Shown in pieces: positions 2,449 through 42,931 of a DNA stretch of 64,000 nt (its first letter is position 1; every line of letters starts with the position of its first letter). This stretch comes from a virus (Duplodnaviria; Caudoviricetes), in IMG/VR virus record IMGVR_UViG_3300025450_001231, one strand, 5' to 3'. Below the pieces are notes generated by a model. It had not been told where the DNA came from and made no database searches. It was given only the letters and a program-made list of their open reading frames with translations. The position numbers and the translations under genes were made by a program.

Positions 2449-3282
2449 ATGAAAAAACTTCTACTAACCTTATTTCTACTGTTTTCGACTTTTGTCCTAG
2501 CACAAACACCGACCTCAACAGTTCCGCTACCCCCAGATATAGCTGCAATTAAAAAGCATAACGTGCTGATTGTTGCTATGACTAAAAAAGATAATCCTCC
2601 GTTTTTCAGCGGTGAAGGCGATGATATACACGGACTTGATGTTGATATCGCTCACAGTATTGCTACGGTATTGGGCGTACCGGTTCAGTTTAGACGAGAT
2701 GCCGACAGCTTTGCAGACGTAGTCGAACAGGTTAGAGATGGTCGTGCCGACGTTGCAGTCAGTAAACTGTCAGTTACCAATCCTAGATTACTCACAGTAC
2801 GATTCAGTGTACCTTATATCAAGCTCAAGCAAGCAATGATTGTGAATCGTCTTTGGTTGAGTCAAAACAGTAAAGGTCGAGAAGTGTATCAAGTGATCAG
2901 AGAGTTTGACGGTAAAATCAGTTTTATCCGCAACAGCAGTTACGATACTTTTGCTAGAATCAATTTTCCCCACGCACAGTATATTCCACAAGACCAGTGG
3001 AGCGACATTGTTGCAGATGTTATGAGTGGTAAAATTGCAGCTGCATACAGAGATGAATTTGAATTGAAGAAAATTAGTTTTGAAAAACCTGATGCTGCAT
3101 TGAGTACTAAAACCATTACCATCAGTGACAGTGTAGACAATATTGCCGTGGCAGTTAACTATCAAAGCGTTCAATTGCTAAGTGTGATTGATTATGTAAT
3201 TCGTAATCAATATGGTAATTTGGATAGTGGTAAACTAATGACACGTTATAAAGCTGAAGCATCAACCAAGGACGCAAAATGA
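2449..3282 (+). CDS. periplasmic amino-acid substrate-binding protein (family 3, PBPb)
   Basis: signal peptide MKKLLLTLFLLFSTFVLA; PPFF...GLDVDIA, GRADVAVSKLSVT..R..VRFS.PY motifs. Confidence 0.85.
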   Translation: MKKLLLTLFLLFSTFVLAQTPTSTVPLPPDIAAIKKHNVLIVAMTKKDNPPFFSGEGDDIHGLDVDIAHSIATVLGVPVQFRRDADSFADVVEQVRDGRADVAVSKLSVTNPRLLTVRFSVPYIKLKQAMIVNRLWLSQNSKGREVYQVIREFDGKISFIRNSSYDTFARINFPHAQYIPQDQWSDIVADVMSGKIAAAYRDEFELKKISFEKPDAALSTKTITISDSVDNIAVAVNYQSVQLLSVIDYVIRNQYGNLDSGKLMTRYKAEASTKDAK

Positions 3283-4556
3283 TTTCTCGATTAAAAACTT
3301 TTCTAACAAGCCCGTTGACTATATTGGGCTCTATTGTTGCTGGTGTACTCACTGGCATTTATACACCCAATACCATTGCAGAATTCGAAAGTGTGGGCGG
3401 CATTTATATTATGTTGCTAAAGGTAGTTGTATTGCCTTTCTTGTTTGCTACTATTTTAGTTGGAGTAATTAACCTTCTGCAAAAAGAAGGTAGCCAAGCA
3501 ATGATTAAAAAAATCATTATTGGTTTTATAGCCAGTATGTTTTTTGCGGCCGCAATTGGAGTTATCACTGTTGTTGCCACTGGCACCGATATGACTCCAG
3601 AAAAGAAAACACAATTGGGTGCATTAGTCAACAACAAAAGCGATGGCGGCGATCTTAATATTACATTACACGAGCCAATGCCCGTCACTCCTGCAGCAGA
3701 TCCTATGCTACTTGCACAAAAGTTTATTCCTGAAAATATCTTTGCTACCTTGGATAAAGGCGAAAGTCTCAAGATTGTTATTTTCTGTATGATATTTGGT
3801 ATTGCATTGGGTAACCTAAAAAGCGAAGGCCAAAAAATGTTGGTCAATGTACTGCAAAGTATTCAGCAAGCGAGTATCAGTATCTTTAAGTTTTTGAATT
3901 ACTTTTTGCCCTTTGCCTTATTGGCCATGATTGGTGCACAGGTTGCCAAAGTAGGTGTTGGTATTTTTGGTACTATGGTAGAGTTTATTGTTCAACAAAC
4001 AATAGGTGGACTATTAATTATCATAGCCAGTACTGTTGTAATTTGGATGCGTGCCGGTGGTAGTATTATAACAACTATCAGAGAAACTAAAGAAACGCTA
4101 ATCGTTGCTATCAGCTCACGTAGTAGTTTGGCCTGTATTCCTTATGCACAAGAAGCATTGCACAAGTTGGGATTTGAGCGTAGCGGTGTTGAGCTGACTG
4201 TACCATTGAGTTTTACTGTTAATCGTATTGGCAGTATTGTTTACTATGCTATTGCCACAGTATTCATTTCTGGTATTTACGATATGCCAATGACTGCCAC
4301 TTCATTGATTGTTGTGTTGTTTGGTAGTATTTTAGCTGGATTGGCCAGTGCAGGTACTACTGGTATACTTACTGTTGCCACCGTAGCAGTTGTTTGCGAT
4401 TTGTTAAAGTTACCTTCTGAAGCAGTATTGGTACTATTGATTGCAGTTGATCCATTGATGGATATGATTAGAACTGCTAGCCACGTACACGGTAATGTTG
4501 CGGTAACAGCATTTGTTTGCGATAAAGAAAATGAACCTCAAAGATCTACTACTTGA
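3279..4556 (+). CDS. dicarboxylate/amino acid:cation symporter (DAACS, GltP/DctA family)
   Basis: 425-aa polytopic protein; LLKVVVLP, PENIF, SSRSS, DMIRT motifs; substrate Arg retained. Confidence 0.9.
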   Translation: MISRLKTFLTSPLTILGSIVAGVLTGIYTPNTIAEFESVGGIYIMLLKVVVLPFLFATILVGVINLLQKEGSQAMIKKIIIGFIASMFFAAAIGVITVVATGTDMTPEKKTQLGALVNNKSDGGDLNITLHEPMPVTPAADPMLLAQKFIPENIFATLDKGESLKIVIFCMIFGIALGNLKSEGQKMLVNVLQSIQQASISIFKFLNYFLPFALLAMIGAQVAKVGVGIFGTMVEFIVQQTIGGLLIIIASTVVIWMRAGGSIITTIRETKETLIVAISSRSSLACIPYAQEALHKLGFERSGVELTVPLSFTVNRIGSIVYYAIATVFISGIYDMPMTATSLIVVLFGSILAGLASAGTTGILTVATVAVVCDLLKLPSEAVLVLLIAVDPLMDMIRTASHVHGNVAVTAFVCDKENEPQRSTT

Positions 4557-5139
4557 CATATTAAACTGGATAGGGCAAAGTCCGTTTAGGCTTTTTGCTG
4601 TTATTCTACTATTGATTTTAGGTATGGGCGGCTGGATCGTCTATACCGAAAAAGACAATTTCATGGCCAGCTATCGTGCTCAGCAGGCTTTACCGCATAT
4701 GAATGGCAAATATGAAGAAGCAACTACATTTATATTGAAAAATAGTAGTGCAGAGCTTATAGCAGTATTTGAAGTCAACACCTTACTGAATACTAGAAAA
4801 CTTGTTTACTTTGTTACTCGCAGTGGCGGAGTTGATAAGAGTTATAACGGATCCGATGTTGGCCTACTGACCAAAAATTACGATAATAACAATGATGTTA
4901 TCGGTCTAATGTCAGGTAAGATTCCTTGCAGTCCTTATTTGAAGCCACAGAGCTTTTTGGGATTTGTATATCGCGAAGCCGGAGTTGAATATATGTGTAG
5001 AATCAGCGTCCCTGCAGAGCCCGGAGTATTCATTGGACAGTTAAGTGTAGGATGGAAAACACCGCCTGCCGATCTCGAATCTGCACAAACAATATTAACA
5101 GTTGCTAGCTCATTGTTGTATGCTGGCAAAAAGCCGTGA
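4531..5139 (+). CDS. T4 holin T-like single-pass membrane protein with periplasmic GAF-like domain (start moved from 4513 to ATG 4531)
   Basis: amphipathic N-terminus, one TM (RLFAVILLLILGMGGWIVY), C-domain motifs SSAELIAVF, EYM...G.....W, LES resembling T4 gpT as recalled. Confidence 0.55.
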   Translation: MNLKDLLLDILNWIGQSPFRLFAVILLLILGMGGWIVYTEKDNFMASYRAQQALPHMNGKYEEATTFILKNSSAELIAVFEVNTLLNTRKLVYFVTRSGGVDKSYNGSDVGLLTKNYDNNNDVIGLMSGKIPCSPYLKPQSFLGFVYREAGVEYMCRISVPAEPGVFIGQLSVGWKTPPADLESAQTILTVASSLLYAGKKP

Positions 5140-5825
5140 AAAAATTAGGCGTACTGGGTGGGATGGGCCCAGCTGCAGGTGCAGAATTTTTAGTAAGACT
5201 TATAAATCAAACTCCCGCTAAAAAAGATCAAGAGCATATTCCCGCAGTACTTTGGAGTGATCCCACAGTATCTGATCGTAGTACCAGTTTGTTAAATGGC
5301 GATGATTTACCATGGCCCAAACTTCGAGAAGGTATATTGGGATTAAGAACCGCAGGATGCGATCACATTGTTATACCTTGTAATACCGCACATTTTTGGT
5401 ATGATCGTTTACAAGAGTTAGGAGTGCCTATTACGCATATTGTAGATAGCGTAGCGGATCAATTGAGAGCCAGTGGAGTAGTAAACACCACCATTGGTAT
5501 TATGGGAACCAAAGCTACTATCAGTCAGGGACTGTATCAAAATCGTTTGTCGGCACAAGGTTGGAATTGTATAACCCCTACCAGCAGTGAAATGAACGAA
5601 CTGGTACAACCTGCTATTGATTTGATCAAATCTGGAAAAATGTTATTGGCAGAAGGTATGCTGAACCAAGTTATGGGCACACTAAACGATCAAGGTGCCA
5701 ATGCCATTGTATTGGGTTGTACCGAGTTACCATTGGCTATTCGCAGAACCAGTTTCAAAAATCGTCCTATAGTTAACAGTATTGATAGTTTAGTCAAAGC
5801 TGTACTAAATATTCAATGCGTATAA
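5136..5825 (+). CDS. aspartate/glutamate racemase
   Basis: LGVLGGMGP, CNTAH and GCTEL two-cysteine catalytic motifs; GTGA overlap with upstream gene. Confidence 0.92.
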   Translation: MKKLGVLGGMGPAAGAEFLVRLINQTPAKKDQEHIPAVLWSDPTVSDRSTSLLNGDDLPWPKLREGILGLRTAGCDHIVIPCNTAHFWYDRLQELGVPITHIVDSVADQLRASGVVNTTIGIMGTKATISQGLYQNRLSAQGWNCITPTSSEMNELVQPAIDLIKSGKMLLAEGMLNQVMGTLNDQGANAIVLGCTELPLAIRRTSFKNRPIVNSIDSLVKAVLNIQCV

Positions 5826-6786: not shown

Positions 6787-7057
6787 TTACAATCGTCCCT
6801 TAACCAGCCCTAACTGTTGAATTTTGGGATCACCGATCTTAAGCAAAAAACTTTTAGATCCGTTGTTATACCAGTGGGTCTTTTTCTTTGATTCAAAATA
6901 ATCCACAGAACTAACCCATCCGTTGGGAATAATGTCATTAAGTTTGAATCGTTTCTTTTCTTTTGTTGTTAGATTGTAGTAAAATTTTGTCCCATAAGAA
7001 CCATTATTGCTACCAATTGTTGACAAGATTAATAGTTTTATATATAATATAGAACAT
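6787..7057 (-). pseudogene. GIY-YIG-type homing endonuclease remnant with internal deletion and frameshift
   Basis: ATG 7057 gives MFYIIYKTINLVNNW-stop (GIY-YIG-like start); another frame gives GSNNGSYGTK and HWYNNG...GLVKGRL DNA-binding-type motifs; catalytic core absent. Confidence 0.65.
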
Positions 7058-7070
7058 GATGAGTAACCCT

Positions 7071-7078
7071 TATAAATA
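7071..7078 (+). promoter_or_regulatory. T4-like late promoter upstream of tmRNA
   Basis: TATAAATA. Confidence 0.65.
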
Positions 7079-7149: not shown

Positions 7150-7540
7150 CATCGTATGAAGGAATAAGAACAATTGGCTGGACGCGGGGGGCAGTGCCCC
7201 GCCCGGTCCACCATAAACATATTAGAATCTGTAAAAAGATCGGGTTTGGTATCCCAGTCCTCTACCTGTAAGACTTAATACACCTTAGTATGTTTTTGAT
7301 GGGCCGGTCTTAGATTCGACAGTTGGTGCAGTATTTGACCAGACGATGCGGTAGGCGATGACCGTAAATCAAGCAAAACTAGTAAATGCAAAAACATCTA
7401 CAAAATTGGGTACTTTCAAAGTAACTGCAGGTAAAGGATTCCGCTTCAGCGGTTCTAAAGCTGCATCTACAAAGGAAGTAGCGTTCGTTTAATCGAACCC
7501 CACGGGGTAGGACTTACCTTGTAAAATAAACAACCAGGAC
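7150..7540 (+). ncRNA. ssrA: circularly permuted (two-piece) tmRNA
   Basis: 3' half (GAC, T-arm, CCGGUCC-A-CCA ending 7213) precedes 5' half (GGGCCGG...AUUCGAC from 7301); acceptor stem with G3.U70; P2 helices 7321-26/7174-79, 7332-36/7162-66, 7343-48/7150-55; paired intervening segment; 5' end of acceptor piece uncertain (may start near 7080). Confidence 0.92.
7388..7492 (+). other. tmRNA tag reading frame AKTSTKLGTFKVTAGKGFRFSGSKAASTKEVAFV
   Basis: GUAAAU context followed by GCA resume codon after a pk1-like hairpin; open 34 codons to TAA 7490-7492. Confidence 0.7.
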
Positions 7541-7562
7541 CCGCTTCGGCGGGTTTCTTTTT
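7539..7562 (+). terminator. intrinsic terminator after tmRNA
   Basis: ACCCGC-TTCG-GCGGGT followed by T-rich tract. Confidence 0.9.
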
Positions 7563-39794: not shown

Positions 39795-39830
39795 AAGGCA
39801 GTTGACTACTGCCTTTTTTTATTGTATACT
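39795..39830 (+). terminator. intrinsic terminator overlapping a sigma70 promoter (-35 in the loop)
   Basis: AAGGCAGT-TGACT-ACTGCCTT-TTTTT; TTGACT-17-TATACT. Confidence 0.85.
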
Positions 39831-39836
39831 TTATCT

Positions 39837-40670
39837 ATGAATTACTATGAAACATTGGGTGTGCCAAATACTGCATCGGAAGATGAACTCAAAAGAGCTT
39901 ATCGAAAATTAGCCAGTCAGCATCATCCAGACAAAGGCGGAAATACTGCCAAGTTCCAGGAAATTCAAGAAGCTTATGCTACACTGAGTGATCCGCAAAA
40001 ACGTGCTCAATATGATAATCCTCAACCGCAAATGGGAGGGGTTCATTTTAATTTCAACGGTCATAATATAAACGATATATTCAGCCAATTTGGATTTAAT
40101 CCTTTTGGCGGCGGCGATCCTTTTGCCAATTTCAGACATCAGCAACAACGAAATAAAGATATACGGGCCAATTTAAGTGTGACGCTCGAAGATACACTAG
40201 CAGACAGGGAAAAACACCTAAACATTAGCACTGGCCCAGGACAAACACAAGAAGTTACTGTAACCATCCCACGTGGTATTACTCCACAGACCACAATCAA
40301 ATATCCTGGACTAGGTGAACAAGTATATCCAAATTTACCAAGAGGCGATCTATATCTTACTATAAATTTGATGACCAATTGGAAGTTTCAAACTGCTGGA
40401 TTAGACCTAATAACAGACTTGACATTAGACTGTTTTCAAGCTATACTAGGTAGTGAACAAACAGTAGTTGGCCTAGACGGAAAACAATTTGTAATCAAAA
40501 CACCCGCTGGTTGCCAACACGGTACCAAATTAAAAATTTCTGGTGAGGGCCTGTGGGGATTTCAACAAGACATCAAAGGACATTTATTTGCACGTGTTAA
40601 CATTACTATCCCAACCGATCTTTCGGAAGAAAAGGTAAGTATTATCCGTAATCAACTGCTCGCAGGTTAA
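39837..40670 (+). CDS. dnaJ: DnaJ-class co-chaperone lacking zinc finger (CbpA-like; start moved to ATG 39837)
   Basis: YYETLGV, HPD, G/F-rich linker, C-terminal domain. Confidence 0.92.
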
Positions 40671-40693: not shown

Positions 40694-42931
40694 ATGCTAC
40701 AAAACAATCCAGACATTGACTCTATTATCGAAGTTGCTACAAAAATAGCACAAAGTAAAAACCACGAATATGTAACCTTGGAACATTTATTGTTGTCTAT
40801 GGTAACGTATCAGCCATTTACAGAAACTCTATCATCATTTGGTTGTATTGTTGACGAAATGCAAAGAGAAATAGACACATATTTAGACAAACAAACATAT
40901 TTGAGCAACAAAGGGTTCGACCCGGTTCCCAAGAAAACTCATAGCCTAGAACGTGTATTCAACCGTGCATTCACACAGGTACTGTTCAGTGGCAGACAAA
41001 CAATGCAATTGGTTGATTTGTATTTGAGTTTAATGAACGAAGAACGCAGTCACGTAAGATACTTTTTACTCAAGTACGGAGTCGAGCGTGCTGCATTTGT
41101 GGAACATTGGAATAAAGTCAACGATTCACCTAAAGATGGAAAAAGCAAAAGGAGCAGATCTGCAGTGGACGGTATTTTAGAAGAACATTGCGAAAATCTA
41201 AACGAGCAAGCCGAGCGTGGGGAAATTGATCCTGTTATTGGTAGAGAGCTTGAAATCGAAGAAATCACACAGGTACTGGCTAAACGTAATAAATCAAATG
41301 TACTAATGGTAGGCGATCCTGGTGTAGGTAAAACTGCTATTGCAGAAGGCCTTGCACGTAATATTGTTAACGGCAATGTACCTGAATATTTGAAAGGGTT
41401 CGTAGTTTACAATTTAGATATTGGCAGTTTACTTGCTGGTAGTAAGTATCGCGGCGAATTCGAAGAAAAACTCAAGGATGTTATTCGTGCATTGAATACC
41501 AAAGGCAAGTGTATTTTGTTTATCGACGAAGCACATCAAATGAAAGGTGCAGGCGGCGGAGCACAAAGTAGTGTGGACTTTGCTAATATGATTAAACCAG
41601 CACTTACCAAAGGACGTATTAAAGTTATTGCTAGTACAACGTGGGAAGAATATACACAAAGTTTTGAAAAGGATCGTGCACTAATGCGCAGATTCTATAG
41701 ACTAACTGTAGAGGAACCTACCCCAGCGGTTGCTAAAGATATTCTTAAAGGATTGAAAGTGCATTTTGAAGCGTTTCACGGTGGTATGATTACCGATGAA
41801 GCCATTAACTCAGCAGTAGATCTCAGTGTGCGTTATCAAACAGACAAACGCTTGCCCGACAAGGCAATTGACTTAATCGATACTGCGGCTGCAAAACTTA
41901 AAATTGTTGCCCCAGACTTTATTGTACGCAAGAGTCATATTATCGATACACTCAGCAAGTTTACCAAGATTCCAGTGGATCAAATGGATCAACAGGGCAA
42001 CAATAGTTTAGAAAAATTGGAACCCAATATCAAAACTAAACTGTTTGGACAAGATGCTGCAGTAGATGCTGTATTAGATAAAATTTATGTAAGCCGTGCT
42101 GGACTTAAATCAATTAACAAGCCTGTGGGCAGTTTCTTGTTCTTGGGCCCAACAGGTACAGGTAAAACTGAACTTGCTAAATTGTTAGCCGAAAACTTAG
42201 GAATGAAACTGTTACGCTATGATATGAGTGAGTATCAAGAAAAGCACAGTATTGCCAAGTTGATTGGTGCACCTCCTGGATATATTGGCTACGATGATGG
42301 CAATATCGGTGGCGGATTACTGATCAGTGATGTTGAAAAGAATCCTAACTGTGTTATCTTATTTGATGAAATTGAAAAAGCACACACTGATGTCAGTAAC
42401 CTGTTGTTAAGTTTAATGGATGAGGGTATTATTACCAGCAGTAACGGCAAAAAAGCAGACTGCAGAAACGCCATTGTTATTTTAACCAGTAACTTAGGTG
42501 CTGCAGACGGGGAAAGAAATAGCATTGGCTTTGGTAGAGATCTTGAGCGCAAAGGCGAAGACGATAAAGCAGTTAAAGATTTCTTTAAGCCTGAGTTCCG
42601 TAATCGTTTGGATGCAATTATTAAGTTTAACAAGCTGAATAAAGAAAGCATTAAGAAAATTACTATTAGATTTATCAATGAGATGAATGACCTATTAGGC
42701 AACAAACAAATTACTGTTGCATTAACAGAAACAGCATACGATTATGTTATCAAAGAAGGTTTTGATAGTAAAATGGGTGCAAGACCATTGAATAGAAAAA
42801 TTAATGATTTAATTAAAACTCCGCTAAGTAAAAAGATACTATTTGAAAATATTTCAAACAGCATAATCAGAGTTGACTATACTGATAAAATTGAATTCCA
42901 TATTGAAAATCAATTTGCACCAACAACCTAA
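40694..42931 (+). CDS. clpA: ClpA-like AAA+ unfoldase
   Basis: HEYVTLEHLLL N-domain; GDPGVGKT and GPTGTGKT Walker A; no ClpB coiled-coil middle domain; 745 aa. Confidence 0.9.
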   Translation: MLQNNPDIDSIIEVATKIAQSKNHEYVTLEHLLLSMVTYQPFTETLSSFGCIVDEMQREIDTYLDKQTYLSNKGFDPVPKKTHSLERVFNRAFTQVLFSGRQTMQLVDLYLSLMNEERSHVRYFLLKYGVERAAFVEHWNKVNDSPKDGKSKRSRSAVDGILEEHCENLNEQAERGEIDPVIGRELEIEEITQVLAKRNKSNVLMVGDPGVGKTAIAEGLARNIVNGNVPEYLKGFVVYNLDIGSLLAGSKYRGEFEEKLKDVIRALNTKGKCILFIDEAHQMKGAGGGAQSSVDFANMIKPALTKGRIKVIASTTWEEYTQSFEKDRALMRRFYRLTVEEPTPAVAKDILKGLKVHFEAFHGGMITDEAINSAVDLSVRYQTDKRLPDKAIDLIDTAAAKLKIVAPDFIVRKSHIIDTLSKFTKIPVDQMDQQGNNSLEKLEPNIKTKLFGQDAAVDAVLDKIYVSRAGLKSINKPVGSFLFLGPTGTGKTELAKLLAENLGMKLLRYDMSEYQEKHSIAKLIGAPPGYIGYDDGNIGGGLLISDVEKNPNCVILFDEIEKAHTDVSNLLLSLMDEGIITSSNGKKADCRNAIVILTSNLGAADGERNSIGFGRDLERKGEDDKAVKDFFKPEFRNRLDAIIKFNKLNKESIKKITIRFINEMNDLLGNKQITVALTETAYDYVIKEGFDSKMGARPLNRKINDLIKTPLSKKILFENISNSIIRVDYTDKIEFHIENQFAPTT

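Follow-up and report, generated by a model that had tools for sequence, protein, structure and literature searches.

A circularly permuted tmRNA gene with a long basic tag in an uncultured freshwater jumbo phage

Can a phage supply a complete ribosome-rescue RNA of its own, and does the peptide tag encoded by such an RNA carry only its ordinary meaning? These questions are raised by a locus in a viral DNA stretch of 64,000 nucleotides (nt), hereafter the window (IMG/VR virus record IMGVR_UViG_3300025450_001231; Duplodnaviria, Caudoviricetes). A preliminary description, made from the letters alone, had proposed that positions 7150-7562 hold a phage-encoded, circularly permuted two-piece transfer-messenger RNA (tmRNA). 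This proposal is borne out, since positions 7150-7435 (plus strand) match the family RF04321 (tmRNA_permuted) of Rfam 15 with 80.3 bits and an E-value of 8.9e-14, and with 83.0 bits in a local scan, against a gathering score of 47 bits. The match spans model positions 1-213, i.e., the full model, and no other above-threshold Rfam 15 match can be found across the window. That the locus is a functional circularly permuted ssrA gene belonging to the phage is highly probable.

The two halves of the tRNA-like domain, the segment between them and the first pseudoknot are arranged as follows.

7150-7213, plus strand: core of the acceptor piece (3' half of the tRNA-like domain), with the 5' strands of helices P2c, P2b and P2a, the T arm, the acceptor 3' strand, an A and CCA
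7184-7202, plus strand: T arm, with a stem of 6 base pairs (bp), GCGGGG (7184-7189)/CCCCGC (7197-7202), and the loop GGCAGUG (7190-7196)
7203-7209, plus strand: acceptor 3' strand CCGGUCC, read from the sequence
7210-7213, plus strand: discriminator A7210 and encoded CCA (7211-7213), read from the sequence
7214-7300, plus strand: intervening segment of 87 nt, closed by an 11-bp stem (7215-7225/7285-7295)
7301-7348, plus strand: 5' half of the tRNA-like domain (coding piece), with the acceptor 5' strand, the D-loop analogue UCUUAGAUUCGA and the 3' strands of P2a, P2b and P2c
7349-7374, plus strand: pseudoknot PK1, with stem P3 (7349-7352/7361-7364) taken from the Rfam consensus and the cofold
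7355-7359 with 7368-7370 and 7373-7374, plus strand: stem P4 of PK1, read by eye

As had been claimed, the CCA-bearing half (CCA at 7211-7213) comes first and G1 follows at 7301; the G3:U70 pair, the three P2 helices, the GGCAGUG T loop on its 6-bp stem, the 87-nt spacer and its 11-bp stem all lie where they had been placed, and the T loop is indeed of the alphaproteobacteria-like GGCNGUN kind, as in the alpha_tmRNA consensus. The acceptor 5' strand GGGCCGG (7301-7307) pairs with the 3' strand at 7/7 positions, G7303:U7207 being the G3:U70 pair. When 7150-7213 and 7301-7390 are cofolded, 28 intermolecular pairs are obtained, namely the 7-bp acceptor stem and the three P2 helices (P2a, 7173-7180/7320-7327; P2b, 7162-7166/7332-7336; P2c, 7150-7155/7343-7348), and the T stem and P3 of PK1 are likewise recovered. 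Since the cofold energy is unremarkable relative to shuffled acceptor pieces (-46.8 versus -41.4 +/- 3.2 kcal/mol), the support for these helices rests on covariation and not on energy.

For this purpose, 21 distinct genes, gathered by pattern scans of IMG/VR and by a model search of phage records, were compared. The G3:U70 pair is invariant (21/21 distinct related genes), while at acceptor positions 4-7 and in the T stem, P2a, P2c and P3 of PK1 the pairing is kept via several pair types, with CG, GC, AU and UA all found at single helix positions. Within PK1, P3 covaries and P4 covaries weakly. The weakest helix is P2b, where 9-16 of the 21 sequences are paired per position, depending on the alignment. 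A covariation between the D loop and the T loop, once suspected, failed in the larger set. The order with the CCA half first is found in every complete relative. The family is a large freshwater one that extends well beyond these genes: the 29-nt PK1 core (7349-7377) recurs exactly in at least 120 metagenome contigs and, among the matches listed, the gene is permuted wherever it is complete, with very diverse tRNA-like domains.

The 87-nt intervening segment is presumably excised. Its 11-bp closing stem is present in the minimum free energy (MFE) fold, two G.U pairs included; the stability of the entire spacer is unremarkable (z -0.79). It contains no open reading frame (ORF) and has no homologue among the related loci compared. 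Spacer length ranges from 12 to 201 nt in the metagenomic family (among the matches listed) and from 25 to 531 nt in the relatives from IMG/VR and Sinorhizobium phage Phosso. In L039 (intervening sequence of 359 nt), L053 (531 nt), L008, L027 and L028, the spacer holds an ORF with a Shine-Dalgarno site. The products from L039 and L053 have HNH-endonuclease-like motifs, which suggests that homing-endonuclease genes may have lodged in these two spacers, and the ORF of L028 would encode a hydrophobic peptide of 37 amino acids (aa). About 530 nt separate the two halves of the permuted tmRNA at L053/L055/L056 (IMG/VR contigs G003, G005 and G006), and Rfam sees no more there than two sub-threshold pieces, of 42.7 and 26.1 bits; long spacers can hence conceal permuted tmRNAs from standard annotation.

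Downstream of PK1, the coding piece continues with the tag and a structured 3' tail.

7388-7492, plus strand: tag reading frame, with GCA (7388-7390), 34 codons (AKTSTKLGTFKVTAGKGFRFSGSKAASTKEVAFV) and UAA (7490-7492)
7483-7498, plus strand: helix 5, GUUCG/CGAAC, with the stop codon in its loop, read from the sequence
7502-7522, plus strand: 3'-tail hairpin of the coding piece (8 bp), ACGGGGUA-GGACU-UACCUUGU, which matches the beta_tmRNA consensus hairpin GGGG...CCUUGU
7537-7562, plus strand: intrinsic terminator GGACCCGC-UUCG-GCGGGUUU followed by a U tract, conserved in relatives with compensatory changes

The resume codon GCA at 7388 is given by the Rfam alignment; its context is UAGUAAAU|GCA, and UAAAU precedes the GCA. 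It lies 10 nt past the PK1 core, and in 112/112 complete relatives (among the matches listed) this distance stays within 9-11 nt whatever the length of the tag. The stop-codon hairpin is kept with other sequences in L116 (UUCGC/GCGAA) and L081 (GAAGCA/UGCUUC), and the hairpin at 7502-7522 shows compensatory changes in L050 and L116.

The tag itself is 34 aa long and basic (AKTSTK...GKGFRF...AFV, net charge +6), and it ends in -VAFV instead of -LAA. The same tag class, with a start of the form A-[KT]-[TA]-S-T-K, a centre G-K-G-F-R-F and a hydrophobic end, can be found in about 10 other genes (L116/L124, L081, L242, L003/L009, L118, L128/L141, L145, L268 and the truncated L255), the T loops and acceptor stems of which are quite different. 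The codons of the window tag and that of L242 are identical in 8 cases, differ only synonymously in 8 and are changed in 14; against L116, the corresponding numbers are 14, 7 and 12. Selection at the level of the peptide is visible in these comparisons. The long tags of L003 and L081 were independently called by ARAGORN. More generally, tags of at least 20 aa occur in 31/112 family members (among the matches listed), all of them open and in phase, and most consist of an N-terminal module ahead of a canonical ANDExFALAA. The modules are of the AK[TA]STK...GKGFRF kind in the window, where the module is basic, and of the A[KN]A[SN]TF-x-[FY]... kind in relatives. The tag motifs are not mentioned in the literature and supplements searched, and a comparison of the 34-aa tag with the ESM Atlas gave no usable match. 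A degenerate pattern of the tag start yielded 80 matches in IMG/VR, mostly by chance, of which only the few with a tmRNA context were kept.

Co-occurring lake variants, i.e., contigs of lake metatranscriptomes over 7349-7402 and the metagenome loci L156-L275, have the PK1 core in common while their tags diverge after codons 2-5 (e.g., AKANTFKFFEVD..., AKTSTFEYFKVDFTV... and ANANTGEVTVSA...). This branching points to tag modules that may be exchanged modularly or may be diversifying rapidly in lake phage populations.

Upstream of the acceptor piece, two further elements can be recognised.

7020-7048, plus strand: sigma-70-type promoter TTGACA-17 nt-TATAAT (12/12), the same promoter being conserved in L030, L008 and L197
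7055-7149, plus strand: structured leader of 95 nt, folded as a three-way junction, which separates promoter and acceptor piece and includes TATAAATA

Transcription would start at about 7055. In five relatives, the promoter takes the form TTGAC(A/T)-N17-TATACT or TACAAT. Across the window, 16 sigma-70 promoters that agree with the consensus at 11 or all 12 positions were counted, all on the coding (plus) strand, whereas 2.9 are expected from shuffles; 7 of the 16 match at all 12 positions (sites include 1451, 8339, 9722, 13505, 18275 and 59584). The jumbo phage seems strongly dependent on the host sigma-70 holoenzyme and, given the 12/12 promoter and the window-wide excess, the tmRNA uses the phage's ordinary host-sigma-70 promoter type. 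The late-promoter control suggested in the preliminary description is a weak reading. Its basis would be the T4 late-promoter word TATAAATA at 7071-7078, which stands inside the conserved folded leader, behind the 12/12 promoter, and of which the window shows no enrichment (8 copies versus 6.75 expected); at most, it could be a second transcription start. Seven of the 8 copies are on the plus strand (sites include 2434, 8391, 18977 and 38797), and several lie 13-40 nt 5' of ORF starts, a position compatible with T4-like late promoters.

The leader folds with an MFE of -27.2 kcal/mol (z -2.67). Homologues were found with nhmmer in L030, L197, L032/L044 and L008, and all three helices show compensatory changes (CCCG/CGGG to CCCU/AGGG, UUAG/CUAA to UUGG/CCAA and AUGAU/AUUAU to AUAGU/ACUAU). 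Other relatives have no leader, their acceptor piece beginning right at the promoter. By its position, the leader may stand in for part of the pseudoknot ring of a one-piece tmRNA.

Several points weigh against a working two-piece tmRNA. The last base of the T loop GGCAGUG is a G, where an A or a U is usual. The second-best model, alpha_tmRNA (RF01849), gives 46.2 bits (E-value 8e-12) over model positions 40-236 of 355 only and so misses its cut-off of 50 bits, and beta_tmRNA (RF01850), whose overlapping match within the same clan is below 46.2 bits, misses its cut-off of 84 bits. ARAGORN did not call the tmRNA of the window at default settings, with -ps or with -ps95; with -ps90 a permuted tmRNA is called, albeit with an internal resume codon at 7426. 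The tag is atypical in its charge of +6 and its terminal Val, which makes recognition by a ClpXP-type protease uncertain. Processing into two pieces, alanylation, tagging and the fate of the tagged proteins are steps that we infer, and function depends on compatibility with the SmpB and the alanyl-tRNA synthetase (AlaRS) of the host. Lastly, contigs from lake metatranscriptome runs of two studies are identical to the window over 7350-7530 and 7351-7518, which is consistent with expression of the coding piece, but such contigs cannot reveal RNA ends or strand, and contamination by DNA is possible. All these contigs start at 7349-7351 and leave 7150-7348 uncovered; the shared start is attributed to strain variation acting on the de Bruijn graph, and not to an RNA end.

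To whom does the gene belong? Judged from its sequence, the window is DNA of an uncultured T4-like freshwater jumbo phage. Its proteins include a T4-type family-B DNA polymerase, a clamp loader, an ATP-dependent ligase and collagen-like tail fibres. The polymerase is nearest to those of Sinorhizobium phage Phosso (469 kb; 51% identity) and Agrobacterium phage Atu_ph07 (490 kb; 47%), followed by those of phages of about 350 kb that infect enterobacteria. The DNA of the window is found nearly verbatim in many freshwater and lake metagenomes. The gene and its surrounding 20 kb have no blastn or megablast match in 50,697 deposited phage genomes. tmRNA genes are widespread in related jumbo-phage contigs; the IMG/VR contigs with related tmRNAs are 36-260 kb long and rated 10-74% complete, from which genomes of about 350 kb can be deduced.

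The statement that no smpB is seen in the window has held up: the best match to an SmpB profile, opposite-strand ORFs being included in the alignment, has an E-value of 0.68, against 3e-62 for the positive control. Likewise, the Pfam SmpB domain is absent from the complete genomes of Phosso and Atu_ph07, from G006 (96% complete according to CheckV) and from the fragments G001 and G002. With smpB lacking in the window and in these relatives, the SmpB, AlaRS and EF-Tu of the host must serve.

Among the other genes of the window, a DnaJ co-chaperone (39822-40670) stands directly 5' of a gene for a full-length, double-ring AAA+ unfoldase of the ClpA type (40694-42931), which is matched by TIGR02639 in a single stretch with 815 bits. 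Since the ClpB model matches in two separate pieces only, this unfoldase has no middle domain. ClpA-like homologues are encoded on related IMG/VR contigs (66-71% identity) and in Phosso (45%). Neither ClpP nor ClpS was recognised among the neighbouring genes that were scanned. Elsewhere, at 2449-5825, an operon-like set of bacterial-type genes encodes an SBP_bac_3 solute-binding protein, a sodium:dicarboxylate symporter and an Asp/Glu racemase.

The preliminary description had also suggested a phage-specific lineage, which stands in one respect and not in another. The exact sequence of the T arm and acceptor is present in many IMG/VR contigs and has no match in the representative genomes of 185,579 bacterial species; the architecture, on the other hand, is that of the betaproteobacterial two-piece type. 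It can fairly be stated that a beta-like two-piece tmRNA has diversified widely on freshwater phage genomes. A relaxed T-arm/acceptor pattern retrieved 9 contigs of metagenome-assembled genomes from bacteria, 8 of which have a 5' end 318-368 nt upstream; these contigs were rejected as a source lineage, as 8/9 have the standard one-piece tmRNA layout. With tblastn, the proteins of the window matched 35/120 PK1-core loci (among the matches listed). PHROG scans of the ORFs flanking the gene on long contigs (345-785 kb) were largely blank, with a methyltransferase and an RNase H on L230 only. In Phosso (PV764938.1), the nearest cultured relative of the phage, positions 349596-350198 of the minus strand (L049/L052) hold an alpha-type permuted tmRNA (113 bits with RF04321 and 108 bits with RF01849), with the tag ANDNVSTKVALAA and an intervening segment of 410 nt, inside a 750-nt gap devoid of annotated features. 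No permuted tmRNA was found in Atu_ph07.

With betaproteobacterial RF01850, the gene of the window has in common the order of its halves, the AGGCGA loop of PK1, the UAAAUGC resume context and a 3' tail in which a GGGG...CCUUGU hairpin is followed by ACCAAA and then by the terminator. Its close relatives L011, L017 and L050/L051 pass the RF01850 cut-off of 84 bits (92-115 bits). Unlike RF01850, however, it has a GGCAGUG and not a UUCGAUU T loop, its tag greatly exceeds the consensus length of about 12 aa and lacks the -AA end, and the 95-nt leader is additional. With alphaproteobacterial RF01849, as in Caulobacter, the T loop of the GGCgGUA type is shared, and RF01849 is the best lineage-specific match, yet under cut-off. 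As to RF04321, this model is confined to the tRNA-like domain plus the first part of the tag (PMC11915505); leader, long tag and 3' tail fall outside it.

Phage two-piece tmRNAs are an established class, to which the gene described here adds another member. Among 18,146 isolate genomes, 53 phage two-piece tmRNAs were reported, 50 of them aquatic, and they were also reported in 17/47 Melnitz-like contigs (PMC9004378), and a tmRNA database lists 79 phage sequences (PMC11915505). As in the OM43 phage Melnitz, the pelagimyophages and cyanophages, a complete permuted ssrA is carried by a lytic T4-like aquatic myovirus, an early-type promoter precedes the gene and a phage smpB is likewise absent, which was checked here for the family of the window only (PMC9004378). 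Unlike these phages, the phage of the window is a freshwater jumbo phage of the Phosso/Atu_ph07 branch, and its gene has a beta-like instead of an alpha-like architecture, a 34-aa basic tag and, according to the local scan, no glutamine riboswitch or other Rfam element (PMC9004378). The gene stands out by its tag class and its structured leader, by combining an alpha-like T loop with a beta-like body, and by escaping both default ARAGORN and blastn against cultured phages.

How would such a gene work? Host RNA polymerase with sigma-70 would transcribe from about 7055 to the terminator (7537-7562), and the precursor would thus measure about 505 nt. RNase P would then cut 5' of G7301, and tRNA-processing enzymes would trim the upstream piece to the encoded CCA at 7213. 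In this way the 87-nt spacer would be released, and the two RNAs would stay joined via the acceptor stem and the three P2 helices. The RNA would be charged by the host alanyl-tRNA synthetase via G3:U70 and delivered by host SmpB and EF-Tu to ribosomes stalled on broken mRNAs. Translation would resume at GCA 7388 and end at UAA 7490, thereby freeing the ribosome, and the fragment would gain a 34-residue basic tag with a hydrophobic -VAFV end that may mark it for proteolysis. A phage that destroys the mRNAs of its host would benefit in that ribosomes are kept available and amino acids recycled. Most likely, then, the gene performs ordinary trans-translation on behalf of the phage, and its tag may have gained a phage-specific reading.

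The last point can be put more broadly. In freshwater jumbo phages, a tmRNA lineage whose tags are extended by exchangeable modules conserved as peptides could represent a tagging code of the phages' own, with the co-encoded ClpA-type unfoldase or another phage factor as its reader, and not a copied host degradation signal; this proposition is doubtful. Improbable, though the strongest alternative for the tag of the window itself, is the narrower view that AK[TA]STK...GKGFRF is no generic degron and that fragments bearing it are routed to a phage factor (e.g., the ClpA-like protein of 40694-42931), to an adaptor or to a fate other than ClpXP. This view would account for a tag peptide conserved in about 10 tmRNA genes in spite of widely differing tRNA-like domains, for the frequency of tags of at least 20 aa, mostly as a module before ANDExFALAA, for the loss of the -LAA end in the window, and for a full-length ClpA-type protein and a DnaJ encoded 33 kb from the tmRNA, the former with homologues of 66-71% identity on two other contigs that bear this tag class. 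However, the ClpA-like gene is also found beside the ordinary tags ANDSLFALAA and ANDNVSTKVALAA (in G014 and Phosso, respectively); as ClpA-like genes accompany long and ordinary tags alike, there is no specific co-occurrence of ClpA and long tags. Moreover, every member keeps a hydrophobic C-terminus (AFV, AFA, LAA, VMA or ILA), as ordinary degrons would, and no candidate for an adaptor was identified. Long tags exist in bacteria too, e.g., in mycoplasmas, and this also counts against a meaning peculiar to phages.

Very improbable is the possibility that the RNA acts mainly as a decoy, by sequestering host SmpB, or as a block to trans-translation in the host, tagging being secondary. It is in keeping with the lack of a phage smpB and with a strong promoter of the constitutive type, which would yield high levels of the RNA, and such a role has been proposed for the tmRNA of mycobacteriophage DS6A, which consists of the tRNA-like domain only (cited in PMC4131195, PMC11915505). 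A competitor of this kind would nevertheless have no need of an mRNA-like part, and this part is intact, with PK1, a fixed resume distance, an open frame selected for its peptide and a stop codon in helix 5. That the locus is a non-functional relic, either a host ssrA that was captured or the attP-type remnant of an integration into a host tmRNA gene, is hardly credible: tmRNA genes are often integration sites and prophages carry fragments of them (PMC9004378), and many looser T-arm matches in IMG/VR (the GUGCGACU loop group) have no permuted partner and may be fragments, but here both halves, promoter and terminator are intact, compensatory changes maintain the helices over many phage contigs, the exact T-arm/acceptor sequence is absent from the bacterial species genomes searched, and the genome is that of a jumbo phage of the T4-like lytic type (DNA polymerase, clamp loader, tail fibres).

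Ordinary trans-translation by a phage-borne gene being the preferred reading, the locus provides a well-supported case of a phage that supplies its own ribosome-rescue RNA yet relies on the SmpB of its host, and this in a little-studied, Phosso/Atu_ph07-like branch of jumbo phages living in lakes. Phage tmRNAs are probably under-counted, since default ARAGORN misses the gene of the window and several of its relatives and the tmRNA of Phosso is unannotated. The family of long, conserved tag modules is the one feature that could raise a new question: if it were true that phage proteins read these modules, trans-translation would have been re-programmed by phages and not merely supplemented.

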